Source: Yuukianura sp. NJ FZ-2021
Taxonomy: Eukaryota
Direction of reading: 5' to 3'
Length of the DNA stretch: 64,000 nt
NCBI GenBank assembly: GCA_046563655.1
Contig: CM102284.1
Location: 5,704,001-5,768,000 of the forward strand
Below, piece by piece: positions 2,151 to 56,744 of the stretch (its first letter is position 1; each line of letters starts with the position of its first letter). Under the pieces are notes generated by a model. The model saw only the letters and a list, made by a program, of their open reading frames with translations. It was not told where the DNA came from and made no database searches. The translations under genes and the position numbers were made by a program.

Positions 2151-5100
2151 CAGAACCTCTCTCTCCGAGAGCAGAATCAAAACTGAAAAAAGGAAAAAGT
2201 TGCTCTGAGAGTTGTTTCTGGAGCTATGAAAAAAGTAAGCGGGAGCTGCCAGGACTATCCCATAGTACTAACTTTTTCGTATACTTTGGGATGAAGGTTC
2301 TTGTGAAACTGTGGGGTGATTTAGAAGACCGCCGCGGCGTCTGAACTACCGAAAAAAATATTCCCCCAGCTGAAAGAACAAAAGGAAGCAGGGGAAAGGG
2401 AGGATTCTTTTCCCTTCCTTCTGATTTCAACCGCAGGGTTCTGGCCGCGGTGTAGAACAAAAGTGATACACGACTTCCAGAAATTTTCTCCAGTGACATC
2501 GATATTGCTGTGGAAACAACGCTGCAGTTCCAGCGAGTGCCAAAATCGCTGCAACAGAGCCAAAGTTTTCAAAACTTTGAAATTTCATGACCGGGGCTTA
2601 CTCAACATAGCAAAATTTTCGAAAAGGAGTCGTAGCACATCAGAATCAACATTTGCATAACTTTCTCTCCAGCGACTTAGCCTCAGGCGGGATTAGGGTT
2701 CGACCATGAGTCAGTCTCAGTCGTTTCCCAGTTCCGGTTTTCGTGCCGGTACGACGGTACGGTACGTCGATCATCCATTTTGAGATGGTCGTTCGGGCGG
2801 AACTTGGCAGCCTTACCTAACATAACCCCGTCGCTGTCGTGGTTAGGGGAGGAAATTCGTTGAAAATCTGACGGGCATCTGAAAAGAGAAAACCCTCCGC
2901 AGAGCCCACAGAATATCATCCGCAATATTCACCAAATCCCTCACCCTCCTCCGGTTTTTAGAAAGCGCCTTTCAATAGCACACAACACCAATGGATCCAT
3001 ACAGCTCCCAAAGTGGATATCCCAGAACCCATGAATCAGAGCAAATCTCCCCTCCACCCTAACAAGAACAACAGTTCAGGGCAGCAGATGAACCCATAAC
3101 ACAGGCAGGGTCACCAACAGTTACACAAAGCTCGCTCATGGCCGCTCTTCCAACAAAAGTAAAGTCCCTAGGCACTCTGTCGTCACCAACAGCAGTACGG
3201 TTCCCATCTTTTCAAAATTCAAAAAATCCAAAATTAAATCTCCACGGATTTCCTCAGAACAAGGGGGAGCTTGGGGGTCATACTAGCTGGCCTCCCCACC
3301 CCCGCTTAGACTGAAATAGATGATCGCCAAAATTCAAAATTAGTTTTTACTATGTCCAGAGACATCAGCGGTGCACATGGATGACTACCCCGCACCCATT
3401 TTTAAAAGCAAGGCGTGCAGCGGGTGGGGAGAGACGTTTCGTGTAATAAAGACATTAACTCCCTTTCCGTGTCCAAAGGAGAGGGGAACCACAGAACTAA
3501 TCTCGACCCCAAAAAACACCCCGCATCATATACAAAAACGCAAAAGCAAAAACCGGAGACTTTATGCCCACCACCACCCTTAGACACGACATCCACAGCC
3601 AAAAACCTTCGTCAATGGATCCATTTATGATGACATTACCCAACCTCCCCACCCTCCAAGTCCCAAAAAATGCACCCCCGCCCCCCAACCATTTCAAGTT
3701 TTTAAGTGCTCTACACCAACTACATATTGCTCAATGTAGGAAACCGTTTTGATGACCATGGGAACGCTCAAATTACAGGCACAAAATTTTTTTGAGAACT
3801 TTTCAAGAAGTATGTCATCACGAATTCGAAGGAGGAGGGCAAGCTTCCTTTGGCAACGAAAAGTTGATTTTCTTTAACAGGTTGAGTACTGCCTCGCTTG
3901 TTGACAAAAAAAAAGTTAGTAGCAAAACCAATTTTTTTACCAATTCGTATGCAAAAATATGCAAAGATTCGGTTGTATTGTTATGTCTACGATGCTCTCA
4001 AATGAAAAGACAGTTTTTCTTGTAAAATCGGAAAAAACATGAGGTATTACCCAACCTGTTAAAGAAAATCAAATTTAAAAAACCTTGGAGGAGGGGGTTG
4101 TTCAAAATTTTGGCACCAAATTTGGACAAAAACCAAAGTTTGAATTTTAAACAGGGTGGTCCTACACAAGGGCAAGGCACAGGGCCAAGAAATTCTTAAC
4201 AATAAATCCCCTGGTCTTATAAAACTTGAAATTTTATTCAAAATTTTGAACATTTATTTGAACATGGGGTTTTGGCTAACAAAAAGGAAAACCTTGGAAG
4301 ATTTATGACTTCCTTTGGATTTTATTCTCTTCTAATTCGTTTTTGAAAAAGGAATTTTGAAAACCCGGACAATGAAGAGATCTGACCGGTCACTGACCCC
4401 AAATCCAAAGAAACAAAGTTGTTCTGTAGAAAACCTTGGAGGCAGAGGGTCACTTCACATCAGAATGGACAGTTTTATGACCAATCTGTTCCCTTGCAGA
4501 AGGTCAACAGCCTCACCCTGACCTCGTTTCGTCTGTTGTGGTCCTGGGACGAGGCCTTGAAGCTAGTTGCTCCTGTTCAGCGGAATCAAAAGAAACTGTT
4601 GATCCCTTCCAGGAAAAGTGAGTTTGAAAAGAGGTTTGGAGAGCAGAGGAGAAAGTTTTCTTTAAAAGTTTCAAATTTGTTCCCATTCTGAACTTCCGGA
4701 ACGTTTTGGAGCTGATCCAAGCCTTTATATGGGCTTTAGCACCTTCACTATTTCATTTTGTCATGCATTTATTCACCACTTTCACTTCCAGGAAAGAATA
4801 TCATTTGAATTGGGGAGTTTATAAGGTCTGGGAAGAAAAGTGCGGGCCGAGGGACGCCTTGTGGTTGTTTCAAACCGCTCTTCACTTTCGCTTTTCCCGC
4901 AATTTTTACTTTCACTCCAACCCTCGCTTTGCTTTCTCCAGAATTTGCAAGATCTTAGACACTTTTACAGCATGACGTAGCATATCAAAACATAAGCTGA
5001 CACTTCACAACATCTTAACATGATGCAACGTAGTACAAAAATGCTCAGCATTTGCAATTTTGTGACTTTTGTTTCGTTTAGGGCGTCATTTGACCTTTGA

Positions 5101-8100
5101 CCAGCTTTCCTCGAGTCAATTTCGGTTAAACTGAGTCCGAATTTGAAGTAACCGCACTGTACATGTGCTGTTAGCCAACAAAGATGAATTCCATTTTTGG
5201 TGGTTCGTTGTGGATACTTTGGTTGAGACTTTGGGAAGTTTTATGAGCCTGACTATCGTTTGGACAAAGTCCAAAAAATCTCCTTCGGAAACCACTGAAA
5301 TCTCTCCGCAAAAGAACCGAAAGAGGACAAGAGAAAAGTAAAGAAGAGATCTTCAGTCCTAGTCAGTTTGGAATCACCCACTTCCGGATCGGAGCAAGTA
5401 TCAACCGAAATAGCTCTTAGCCAGAAATTGCGACAAATCGACTACTTCCCAGCAGCAAAATCCCGTCTTCCTCCTCTTGTAAAAAAATACAGAGAGATCT
5501 CAATTCCAAATGGAATCTATCCAATAAAATCAAATCCACTTTCTCTCTCCAAAGGAAAAATTCAAAGCAGAGCATTGAATGCTACCCAATCGTCCGAATT
5601 AAGACAATTGAAGGCCAAGGGACGGGGGACTTAATCTATTGTTTGGAGATCTCAATCTCAAAGATTTAAGATCGAAGGGACCCCTTATGTTTGTCTGGTT
5701 GTTTGAAATGGTTCAGTGGCCCTTCAAGCAGAGAATAAGTTACAAAACTGAAAAGTGATCCCTATCCATTTGGTAAAATACAAAGGGACTTAAGGGCTCC
5801 CAGTCCCTTCCCAAGCCCAAAACCAGAACAAATTTCAATGAATCCACAACTTCTCAAGAGTGTAACAAAACACAATACAAGGCTTTGACAAGATCCTCTC
5901 TTTTCTTTCTTTATCTTCATCCGATGCTTTCAAATATCCTGGAATCTGAACCTATCGTTAGGCTAAGGTTAGGTTTTGAAATTCTCGTTAGGCTGGGACT
6001 GTTGAAATCCTCTTAATTGAGTTATGAAAGGTGGACAGGGAGCTTGCAATAGATTTTCAAAAAAATGAAGGAAAAAGTTTTGACAATCAACAATGAAAAT
6101 TTGTGGGAGGAGATTTTTTCACTTTTTTTTCAAATTCTTAAATTTTTGTTATATTTTTCTTGGTTGGAGTTTCTCAGATTGTGGTAGGCTAACTTCGGTT
6201 AGGTTAAGATAGCTGGAGAGAGTTGGGTTATGTTAGAGGAGTGTTATTGGTTATTGGTGTGTGTAATTGGGCATCTCGGGTGCTCAATTCCCCACTTTCT
6301 CCAATCCCCAAATCCAGAATCGAGAAGCTTTCTAGAAGTGATTCAAGTTAGACGTGGAATTCCTTTGGCCGGAGAAAGCAGGAAGCCGATAAGGAAATCC
6401 TCTCCTCAATCTCACACCAACTTCAACTTCTACCAAAATTTCACATCCACAATCCACCACATTTAGAAAAGTTAGGGTAAGAGATCTCAAAGAAACGAAA
6501 AAGAGGAAAAGACTTCATCAAACAATAAAATGGGATTGGGAAACTGTCTCAAATTGTCTCCGCTCTTCTCAGAAGAGTAAAAGTCGGCGTGGCTTTCCTG
6601 TTCTTTTGGTTTGGATTTGGCAGATAGGATTCTTGATCTGAATGGAAACATATCTTCCACCACGATACTTTTTTATAGAAACGCAATGGTTAGTGTGCCT
6701 AGTGTTAGGTTAGATTTTGGTTAGTTTAAGGTTAGGCTTTTTCAAAGGGAGTGAAAGTGAGAGGAGAGACATTGGAGTGAAAGTGGACGGAGAGTGAAAG
6801 TGACTCTTTCTTACTTATTGTTAGCCACTCATAGAGGACACGCTCGTTGGTGGCGTCAGTAACATAAATGCAATAAACTTGAGAAAAAAAATGAGAATTG
6901 AAAAACTTTAGTTTAGTCATTTTATTTTTAGTTTTCATTTATTATGTAAATATTTTTGATCAAATCACAAATCCTCATTTGAAGAATCAACATGAACTGG
7001 TATGGATTTCCTCCACCTTAAATGTCCAACATCGACGAAAATTTTAATTGACGTCGATTTTTTCTTCTTAAATTTAAAATTTAAAATTTGAACTCTCTTT
7101 TTAATGCGTTTCAAAATGTTCACTAGTTATCAGAAAATTTTCCGGACATTTCACAACTTTTTTTAAATTGAAAATCAAAGGATTTTTTTTACATAAAATG
7201 GTAGTAAAATTTAGTTTACATTCTGAGACAACTTGCTTTTCCCTCGGGAAATAGCACATGAAAAACCAATGTGCATAAAAACTAAAAATGGTTTGGAAGA
7301 TTTTTTTTTGAAATTTTGCAACAAGTCTGCTAATGTTAAAGCAAAAGACTTGACTGTGGCAGAAAATGAGAATTTTGAAGAAGAAGACCTTGTAAAAGTA
7401 ATTTATTTTTCTTTATGCTTGTTTAAGTGTTTAAAAGTTTTTAAAACTGTTGCTTCCATAAGCTTAAAACGAAGAGGGTTGGTTTTTTTTATGTTTTCAG
7501 GTTAAGATGAGGAAAGGGGGTTGGTTGAAATTAGGTTTCTGCTGATTTTTATCTTCTATTGTTCTCTACCACGTTTCAGTATTTTACAAAAACAGAATGC
7601 TCAGAATGGGTTGGTTAGGTAGAAACTTTACAGTTTGTTAAAAAGATGAGCGGAAGTGGAAGAGGTGTGGATTTCATTTACTTTTTGAAAGCAGGATTTT
7701 AGTTGTCCTCTTCAAATTTTTCCTAATTTCAAACTAGGGTGTAATTATGGTAATTCGCTTTTCAACTACGCCCATTTCTACACACACTTCCGCCTTCCCT
7801 GTCTACACTCCTGTACAATTTCAAAAAAATTGACGAATCAATGTACTACCATGCACAACGAACTTTATAACTTAAAAAAAGAATTCTGTGAAACCAGCCA
7901 TACTTTTGTTTTCGAAAAACAAAATTTTCGGAGTTGTGATGAACCTGTATGCTGTTTGACATTAATTCCACATTTTTTCCAAGGTGTTTGAAATTAGTTT
8001 AAAGTTGAGTTTAACTATGACTAAAGTTTGTGAAATGTCGTTAAGTTCCGTTATTTATGGAGGCGGAAAGACTTTGTCGCGTCTTTAAAAAAGCGCAGAA

Positions 8101-56501: not shown

Positions 56502-56744
56502 GGTTGAAATTAACGTTATCTTCTAATAAATATGAAAGAAGTATGAAAAAATCTAATCAAGAAATCACTTTTGGAACAAATCATTGGATACTTTTGGAGG
56601 TCAAAGGTCAAGGGGCCCGTAGAATATAATATCAAAATGGCTTGTTGTTCCAAAGATGTTTTCAGCATTACAACTAAATGTCGCCGAAGCGACGCCACAA
56701 AGCATCTTTTCTCTTGTCTTTCATCTTGAAAGAATCGAGATAAC

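Follow-up and report, generated by a model that had tools for sequence, protein, structure and literature searches.

Recurrence of a 13-mer identical to the consensus DR1 element, mostly in short introns, within a 64-kb stretch of contig CM102284.1

The 64-kb stretch of contig CM102284.1 analysed here (the window, to whose positions all coordinates refer) raises the question of why a single 13-nt word, AGGTCAAAGGTCA, should recur in it so often and with such a preference for introns. The word has the form of a DR1 element (a direct repeat with a 1-nt spacer), to which NR2-type nuclear receptors, namely HNF4, RXR/USP, COUP-TF/Seven-up and TR2/4-HR78, bind best as dimers. Its excess in the window is huge and specific. 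We tentatively propose, at a little short of an even chance, that the copies are high-affinity sites of an NR2-type receptor dimer, kept in introns in the orientation that is compatible with splicing; the assignment to nuclear receptors is made from sequence identity.

Copy number and form of the 13-mer

Nine perfect copies were located, at 9207 (-), 10385 (+), 21080 (+), 21669 (+), 36494 (-), 38893 (-), 39872 (+), 43534 (-) and 56598 (+), all of which had been listed in the earlier note on this DNA. No perfect copy occurred in 100 dinucleotide-preserving shuffles. With up to one mismatch the number of matches rises to 19 (nine perfect and 10 one-mismatch copies), against a shuffle mean of 0.10 and a largest value of 2. 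The nine one-mismatch copies reported earlier are all present, together with a tenth which had been overlooked, AGGTCAAGGGTCA at 19422 (+). Two-mismatch copies number 14, compared with 1.9-4.7 in simulations under Markov models of order 1, 3 and 5.

Markov models of orders 1-5 trained on the window predict 0.004-0.06 perfect copies, and those of orders 6 and 7 predict 0.5 and 3.6, respectively, this rise being due to the model memorising the copies themselves. When the 19 copies were masked before training, the expectation was 0.002-0.045 perfect copies for all orders from 1 to 7, and base composition is therefore no explanation for the nine observed. Thus the over-representation claimed earlier stands, and higher-order Markov models do not account for it. 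The hexamer AGGTCA is itself over-represented, although its count is inflated by the three Runx paralogues of the window, and this might speak for chance, base composition, an assembly artefact or a known transposon as the source of the copies. We consider any of these extremely improbable given the masked expectation, the unrelated flanks (see below) and the coverage of the region by contigs from three sequencing runs belonging to two studies.

Among pairs of AGGTCA lying no more than 30 nt apart, the direct repeat with a 1-nt spacer was found nine times and each other arrangement once; no arrangement of the half-site other than DR1 is enriched. In 9/9 perfect and 10/10 one-mismatch copies the spacer is A. 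In half-site, orientation, spacing and spacer base the 13-mer is thus the exact DR1 consensus that it had been taken for. The preceding base is G in eight, A in seven, C in three and T in one of the 19 copies (purine in 15/19), and the following base is A in 11/19, a weak preference that is limited to the adjoining bases. Six of the nine perfect copies continue with A and so consist of exactly two heptamer units, AGGTCAA.

AGGTCA occurs 95 times in the window where about 25-34 occurrences are expected, an approximately 3-fold excess. Twenty-eight of these sit within the 19 copies and the other 67 compare with an expectation of 24-52; many of the isolated half-sites belong to the coding sequence of the three paralogous Runx genes. 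Hereafter a copy is called T-form where the transcript strand reads TGACCTTTGACCT and A-form where it reads the purine-rich AGGTCAAAGGTCA. Isolated half-sites inside introns show no strand bias (six A-form, eight T-form), and on these two counts half-site abundance was rejected as the cause. The unit is the 13-mer and not the half-site.

All-against-all BLAST of the copies with 150 nt of flanking sequence on either side returned nothing but windows that overlap each other, a single paralogous Runt exon and matches centred on the motif, none longer than 20 nt, and no position outside the motif is conserved within 70 nt on either side. Both BLAST and the position-wise alignment agree with the claim that the flanks are unrelated beyond about 2 nt. 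A carrier such as a transposon, a short interspersed element (SINE), a miniature inverted-repeat transposable element (MITE) or an Alu-type sequence was rejected, since no flanking sequence is shared beyond 20 nt and none is conserved within 70 nt, and a partner signal at a fixed distance, as in small-RNA promoters, was rejected because nothing of the kind lies within the same 70 nt. The longest array detected by Tandem Repeats Finder comprises 2.9 heptamer units (21664-21683); a micro- or minisatellite of AGGTCAA was rejected for want of any array of three or more units in the window. The same program found 10 period-7 repeats with at least two perfect copies, four of which are the DR1 motif. 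The others are unrelated words, and a general tendency to 7-nt duplication was likewise rejected.

Position of the copies in genes and on the transcript

Hand annotation placed 13 of the 19 copies in introns, two in coding sequence (38893, 19422), one before an ATG (39872) and three in intergenic DNA (5091, 14547, 23810). The intronic copies belong to Runx2 (three), Runx3 (four), trypsin A (one), trypsin B (two), an arrestin-domain gene (one) and a small Cys/Pro-rich gene (one), with the copy at 56598 as the probable thirteenth. For an automatic check, splice-site matrices were built from 32 motif-free introns and dynamic programming yielded 17 gene models; a first splice-site predictor and a codon-usage exon finder were too noisy for small exons. 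The models include 107 introns totalling 12,812 nt (20.0% of the window), with 36.4% in exons and the remaining 43.6% (27.9 kb) outside both. Ten of the 19 copies lie wholly within modelled introns (p 0.0016) and 11 overlap them (p 0.0003). If only non-coding copies are counted, introns hold 10 of 17 with a 31% share of the non-coding DNA (p 0.018). These models are rough, having missed Runx2 exon 1 and misplaced some acceptors, and their total intron length is probably too high, so that the enrichment test errs on the conservative side. By hand (13/19) or by model (10/19), the copies lie mostly in short introns of unrelated genes, as had been noticed earlier.

Other over-represented words are distributed differently. 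The counts outside gene models, in exons and in introns are 29/3/8 for AGTGAAAG, 26/3/4 for GGAGAAAG, 10/1/4 for TTAGGTTA and 35/3/13 for TAATTA. Since these words are mainly intergenic, the intron preference belongs to the DR1 word and not to motifs generally.

Genes were named from Pfam scans of open frames, from two VWRPY-stop ends and by manual reading of the sequence. Three Runx paralogues lie within 23 kb, namely Runx1 (540-2267, -), Runx2 (9108-11591, +) and Runx3 (19052-22718, -), where only two had been recognized before. VWRPY-stop closes Runx2 (11577-11591) and Runx3, whereas Runx1 runs off the left edge of the window. The remaining genes code for two tandem trypsin-like proteins, an arrestin-domain protein, a SET+TPR protein, a tetraspanin-like protein, a small Cys/Pro-rich protein, two C2H2 zinc-finger proteins and RNF123, and several are unnamed. 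A Runt exon matches human RUNX2 in 31/36 residues, and a 56-residue Runt exon has its closest homologs in the springtails Allacma fusca (94%/91%), Orchesella cincta (91%) and Folsomia candida (89%/87%). The window has a GC content of about 40% and introns of 60-90 nt. In part of PMC5490193 the F. candida genome is given a GC content of 37.5%, with 31.9% in exons and 28% in introns, and the GC content, intron length and gene density of the window fit the figures found there. On the lead given by that one short exon, the organism is probably a springtail or closely related to one. No nuclear-receptor domain was found by Pfam among the open reading frames (ORFs) scanned in the window, and a protein search with the arrestin ORF gave no match at E<=1e-10.

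Gene by gene, copies with at most one mismatch cluster in Runx3 (five) and Runx2 (three, with one two-mismatch copy in addition). None was found in RNF123 (20 modelled introns), the two zinc-finger genes, gene G4 or the genes at 57-64 kb, and Runx1 has no DR1 copy at up to two mismatches. The first copy of the window, one-mismatch TGGTCAAAGGTCA at 5091..5103 (-), lies between the divergent Runx1 and Runx2 and outside all gene models. Intron 1 of Runx2 (9197-9291; donor position weight matrix (PWM) score 10.0, frames open for 42 and 75 codons) holds a perfect T-form copy, TGACCTTTGACCT, at 9207..9219 (-), 10 nt after the 5' splice site GTAAGT, and a two-mismatch T-form copy, TGACCTTCTACCT, at 9273..9285 (-), which ends 6 nt before the 3' splice site. 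The A-form one-mismatch copy AGGTCAAAGGCCA at 9441..9453 (+) is 8 nt after the 5' splice site of the intron 9433-9559, with Runt exons on both sides. A perfect A-form copy at 10385..10397 (+) falls in a probable Runx2 intron, 10343-10433 (donor 8.6, acceptor 4.8), whose boundaries are uncertain, as the automatic model takes the GT within the motif as donor. One-mismatch AGGTCAAAGGTTA at 14547..14559 (-) is located between the 3' ends of Runx2 and Runx3, outside gene models.

In Runx3, which is read from the minus strand, the T-form one-mismatch copy AGGTCAAGGGTCA at 19422..19434 (+) belongs to the last coding exon (coding score 40.5 for 19067-19699). The 206-nt intron 21006-21211 contains two T-form copies: one-mismatch AGGTCAAAGGTTA at 21042..21054 (+), ending 36 nt before the 3' splice site, and a perfect copy at 21080..21092 (+) inside a 70-nt segment, 21058-21127. 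A further one-mismatch T-form copy, GGGTCAAAGGTCA, is found at 21356..21368 (+) in the centre of the 63-nt intron 21322-21384. The perfect T-form copy at 21669..21681 (+), part of the 2.9 heptamer units at 21664-21683, ends 13 nt before the 3' splice site (acceptor PWM 3.6) that precedes the first Runt-domain exon. One-mismatch AAGTCAAAGGTCA at 23810..23822 (-) lies about 1.1 kb upstream of the modelled Runx3 start, in intergenic DNA or the 5' region.

The trypsin genes hold three one-mismatch copies: AGTTCAAAGGTCA (T-form) at 32162..32174 (+) in the trypsin-A intron 32150-32225, ending 12 nt before the 3' splice site; AGGTCAAAGGTTA (T-form, gcTAACCTTTGACCT) at 32807..32819 (+) in the trypsin-B intron 32785-32851, ending 22 nt before it; and AGGTCGAAGGTCA (A-form) at 33696..33708 (-) in the trypsin-B 5' intron 33671-33745. 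In the arrestin-domain gene a perfect T-form copy at 36494..36506 (-) closes the intron 36381-36509, which reads ...TGACCTTTGACCT-CAG and then exon; its frames are open for 212 and 118 codons and the downstream ORF has a coding score of 24.2. The perfect A-form copy at 38893..38905 (-) is indeed coding, as had been noted, and is read in frame as E-V-K-G-Q in an exon of the SET+TPR gene. Another claim, that of a copy 6 nt before an ATG, is borne out by the perfect A-form copy at 39872..39884 (+), which precedes the start (39891) of the tetraspanin-like gene in the gap of about 450 nt that forms a divergent promoter region with the SET gene. A perfect T-form copy at 43534..43546 (-) lies in the last intron (43476-43565) of the small Cys/Pro-rich gene, 19 nt before the 3' splice site, although the automatic model picks an acceptor at 43530, which would make the copy exonic. 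Finally, the perfect copy at 56598..56610 (+) is T-form with respect to a minus-strand gene (ORF 55878-56522) and sits in a probable 149-nt 5' intron (56523-56671) or in the 5' leader.

The SET+TPR gene (37717-39413, -) has only two close relatives in a collection of 5.8 billion proteins, one of them at 997-1971 of contig L001. Both (63% and 60% identity) come from metagenome or Logan assemblies, and none from named springtail proteomes.

The transcript strand and the distance to the splice sites bear on a different explanation, in which UGACCUUUGACCU acts at the RNA level in the splicing of short introns, as a substitute for branch site and pyrimidine tract or as the site of a splicing factor, and the DR1 identity is coincidental. 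The intron excess, being absent from other over-represented words, is in line with it, and so is the strand of the intronic copies, 10 of which are T-form and three A-form (two-sided binomial p 0.09). If the two-mismatch intronic copies at 9273, 31680 and 40542, all T-form, are added and 56598 is left out, the ratio becomes 12 to 3 (p 0.035). Five of the 10 T-form copies end 3-22 nt before a 3' splice site and seven of 10 within 36 nt; in several introns the motif, as modelled, stands at the usual place of the pyrimidine tract or branch region. Introns with a copy near the 3' end have low acceptor scores (-5.3 to 3.8, against a training median of 10.9 and minimum of 3.1). The extreme is the arrestin-domain intron (acceptor PWM -5.3), which has an A-rich stretch in place of any other T-rich tract, and whose 3' splice site is needed to reach a downstream frame of clear coding score. 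In three of the 10 one-mismatch variants TGAC has become TAAC, which is nearer to the CTAAY-type motifs seen by eye before 3' splice sites of RNF123.

Other observations do not suit an RNA signal. It is most improbable that a textbook DNA site of 13 nt would be matched exactly by chance; three of the copies in introns are reversed, two copies are coding, one precedes a start codon and three are intergenic; single TGACCT words in introns lack the strand bias (8 versus 6); and 20 modelled introns of RNF123 do without a copy at up to one mismatch. Eight host introns were folded and gave no significant structure (z -1.45 to +1.65). On balance an RNA-level element appears distinctly unlikely. A structured RNA or mirtron was rejected, the same z-scores being accompanied by no Rfam hit at gathering scores. 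As an observation apart, the arrestin-domain gene model, if correct, means that introns with highly unusual 3' ends are spliced in this organism. The preferences of the copies for introns and for one transcript strand are new findings.

Origin of the copies and proposed receptor binding

Comparison with relatives indicates how one copy came about. At the coding site 38893 the two SET+TPR relatives (63% and 60% identity over the ORF) have TFQGR and LFEGR opposite E-V-K-G-Q, with no gap and strongly conserved flanks, and the DNA of one of them reads ACTTTCCAAGGTCG, which contains the 3' half-site only. As there is no length change and the relative has just the 3' half-site, the 5' half-site at 38893 was made by clustered substitutions and not by an insertion.

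To follow other copies, contigs of three public runs from two studies (X1, X2 and X4, the last from a second organism) were aligned to 21001-41000. One contig, seen in all three runs, skips the 70-nt Runx3 intron segment that holds the perfect copy at 21080. Its depth is 84/361 in X1, 76/98 in X2 and 21/21 in X4, where it is the only form. It also carries four substitutions nearby, at 21158-21168, and together with the skip these mark it as a divergent haplotype. The 21080 copy is thus polymorphic or young. Contigs that come from other parts of the genome stop or are joined precisely at copies, with unrelated sequence beyond (in X2, for instance, 12 contigs form the loose ends at 21664, with an agreement of 0.42), which weakly suggests that the word is common outside the window. 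Some of these contigs contain two copies 1-11 nt apart or one degenerate AGTCAA/AGGTCAA run; judging by the latter, arrays of the heptamer may be present in other regions of the genome.

Apart from one possible case, the paralogous Runx introns have no copies in common. In the intron that precedes the first Runt-domain exon a T-form copy is present both in Runx3 (perfect, 13 nt from the 3' splice site) and in Runx2 (two mismatches, 6 nt). The Runx3 intron 21322-21384 splits the Runt domain where Runx2 has a single exon (9560-9716); by comparison of the two sequences it is a paralogue-specific intron gain or loss.

These data invite the suggestion that the word is a very small repeat, selfish or mutational in nature. 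A unit of 13-14 nt, two AGGTCAA in length, would be made or copied by some process peculiar to the lineage (templated repair, short-patch conversion or transposon footprints, for example), would be tolerated mainly in introns and would then decay neutrally. Nine perfect, 10 one-mismatch and an excess of about 10 two-mismatch copies would fit decay from a perfect form, with mismatches spread over the motif and 6/9 perfect copies being exactly two heptamers. The polymorphic 21080 copy, the absence of shared copies from paralogous introns (the one possible case apart) and the paired copies and degenerate run in contigs from elsewhere point the same way. Set against this, 7-nt duplications are in general rare and the arrays stop at 2.9 units, nothing has been inserted at the exonic copy 38893 in comparison with the relatives, and an insertion should be equally tolerable in intergenic DNA, yet only three copies lie in the 27.9 kb there. 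The DR1 identity would again be a coincidence, and we know of no mechanism that spreads a bare 13-mer in animals. We regard such a repeat as unlikely. The earlier suggestion of "remnants of a tiny repeat" finds no support in the sense of a decayed transposon; a 13-14-nt unit that spreads or is made locally is conceivable, although the unchanged length at 38893 argues against simple insertion.

We return to sites of an NR2-type receptor. The identity of the word with the DR1 consensus is the strongest single fact, and since neither an RNA signal nor a micro-repeat has a reason to hit exactly that 13-mer, receptor binding is ranked first. DR1 is described as AGGTCAxAGGTCA, bound by HNF4 homodimers, and HNF4 is stated to occur in all animals examined, in part of PMC3252374. 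Under this proposal the lineage would keep many high-affinity DR1 sites inside or beside particular genes, here Runx2, Runx3, the two trypsins and the arrestin-domain, SET/TPR, tetraspanin-like and small Cys/Pro genes. The sites would arise in place and would not be delivered by a transposon. In compact genes introns would be the available non-coding DNA, and the sites would come to lie in short introns. They would survive mainly with the pyrimidine-rich strand UGACCUUUGACCU in the pre-mRNA, which adds no AG or GU dinucleotides; the purine-rich strand would bring AG and GT into the transcript, so that only the other orientation would be freely tolerated. The data themselves show the sequence of the copies, their excess, anatomy, place and strand, whereas receptor binding, selection and the cause of the intron bias are the parts of this proposal that we infer.

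Three further observations count in support: the gene-wise clustering together with the absence of copies from RNF123 and the zinc-finger genes, the pre-ATG copy at 39872 in its divergent promoter gap, and the T-form copy at the homologous Runx2/Runx3 intron. The gene-body positions, with one copy at a divergent promoter gap, would also suit a DNA site of a non-receptor protein, for instance a factor of architectural or insulator type, or a zinc-finger protein peculiar to the lineage, by which transcribed gene bodies would be marked. Such density and perfection would be more in keeping with the motifs of architectural proteins than with hormone response elements. The half-site arrangement, the spacing and the spacer base, however, are exactly of nuclear-receptor type and we know of no architectural, insulator-type or zinc-finger factor for this 13-mer, and a protein of this kind seems very unlikely.

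Several results weigh against receptor sites. The intron excess differs from what is seen with plain enhancer-type sites or other abundant words, and it persists within the Runx cluster in spite of the long intergenic stretches there; the transcript-strand bias, too, is unexpected for plain enhancer-type sites. The ratio of perfect, one- and two-mismatch copies (9:10:14) is sharper than usual for binding sites and fits the decay of once-perfect copies at about 8% per base by our arithmetic. One-mismatch variants fall at positions tolerated by receptors in 4/10 cases, against about 2.8 expected by our own count, and 3/10 carry the same change from AGGTCA to AGGTTA. To these must be added the polymorphic or young state of the 21080 copy and, as a weak point, the 4.3-kb contig L001 from the relative with 63% protein identity, in which no copy at up to two mismatches and no half-site excess was found; at the density of the window only about 1.3 copies would be expected in so short a contig.

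The two kinds of evidence might also be combined. A single 13-14-nt "intron word" without a transposon body could have been multiplied or repeatedly created in transcribed genes of the lineage, probably to thousands of copies genome-wide, and could act both as a receptor site in DNA and as a branch or pyrimidine region in RNA. This dual role is conceivable although unlikely; if true, receptor binding would be tied to intron architecture.

Neighbouring words and known systems

Additional repeated words were encountered in the window. For AGTGAAAG(T) there are 40 occurrences where about 5 are expected; they lie on either strand with unrelated flanks, most densely in 0-25 kb (6750-6800, 12174-12192, 23420-23448); 29/40 are outside gene models, mostly around the Runx genes. 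Its sequence presumably resembles a Blimp-1/PRDM1 or IRF-type motif. GGAGAAAG(T/C) is present 33 times (about 4 expected), 26 of them outside gene models (e.g. 4648, 13175, 22959 and 23005), and ACTTTCTCCAG is found also at an intron 3' end (9794-9804) and in a short tandem repeat at 22958-22992. TTAGG-like short runs were located at 13244-13256, 43176-43190 and 6705-6735, and TTAGGTTA occurs 15 times (1.5 expected). The excess of the hexamer AGGTTA is accounted for by these runs, which may represent the arthropod-type telomere repeat at interstitial sites. The runs lie apart from the DR1 copies, which are bounded 13-14-mers and not arrays. Palindromic words are over-represented as well, for example TCAAAATTTTGA (10 versus 0.2 expected).

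At about 27004-27670 the summed contig depth in X1 reaches 5063, compared with roughly 200-400 elsewhere, and many loose ends occur at 27194-27330; this stretch is a high-copy repeat and probably a fragment of a transposon. A 39-nt tandem duplication (2.0 copies, 92% matches) is found at 42221-42297 in the open frame 41943-42362 of an unnamed plus-strand gene, and many contigs from elsewhere end at a short CAAAATTTT repeat at 40708-40732.

Dispersed short words are known from other systems. The 8-nt motif upstream of nematode 21U-RNAs (Piwi-interacting RNAs) is scattered over both strands of introns and intergenic DNA with unrelated flanks, at a fixed distance to the RNA start. The 13-mer differs in having no conserved position within 70 nt on either side. 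Introners are intron-generating transposable elements that are similar over the whole intron. They resemble the present case in their association with short introns and in that the host intron 21322-21384 of Runx3 is absent from Runx2, but the host introns share the 13-mer only, and the others are at positions common to Runx2 and Runx3; an introner was rejected, since neither BLAST nor the 70-nt alignment showed the copies to be similar along entire introns. Bacterial DNA uptake sequences and Chi-type words are perfect 10-13-nt words at kilobase spacing, with unrelated flanks and also in coding sequence. The scattered perfect copies with unrelated flanks are alike, although these words belong to another domain of life, and we know of no counterpart in animals of their uptake or recombination mechanisms.

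Papers which contain the reverse 13-mer are, by their titles, mostly on nuclear receptors (PPAR, RXR, TR4), with a few unrelated. In the main texts of the literature searched, springtails included, no description of a carrier-free, abundant consensus DR1 pattern was found. The part of a Daphnia motif study seen here (PMC5569996) concerns EcR/USP inverted repeats and not DR1 abundance.

If one perfect copy per 7 kb holds genome-wide, there would be on the order of ten thousand optimal DR1 sites without a repeat carrier. This would offer a natural system for the amplification of a transcription-factor site without a mobile carrier, and would let one ask whether receptor binding in gene bodies is coupled to the splicing of very short introns, and how a DNA motif and a splice signal come to share their bases. 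Should the word be a neutral micro-repeat instead, an unusual mutational process would be worth describing.

With DR1 elements of NR2-type receptors the copies share the two direct AGGTCA half-sites, the 1-nt spacer A and the purine in front. Known elements are usually degenerate, sparse and located in promoters or enhancers; those of the window, known here from their sequence, recur as perfect copies at about one per 7 kb, for the most part within introns 60-200 nt long and with a transcript-strand bias. To our knowledge, receptor sites in comparable numbers occur only where a transposon carries them, as with Alu. The closest case described is that of the approximately 1.2 million HNF4 sites in human Alu repeats (Bolotin et al. 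2011; part of PMC3252374), which are alike in being receptor sites in very large numbers. As that part of the paper presents them, the Alu sites are carried by a retrotransposon of 300 nt and deviate from the DR1 consensus, whereas here the consensus itself recurs without a carrier.

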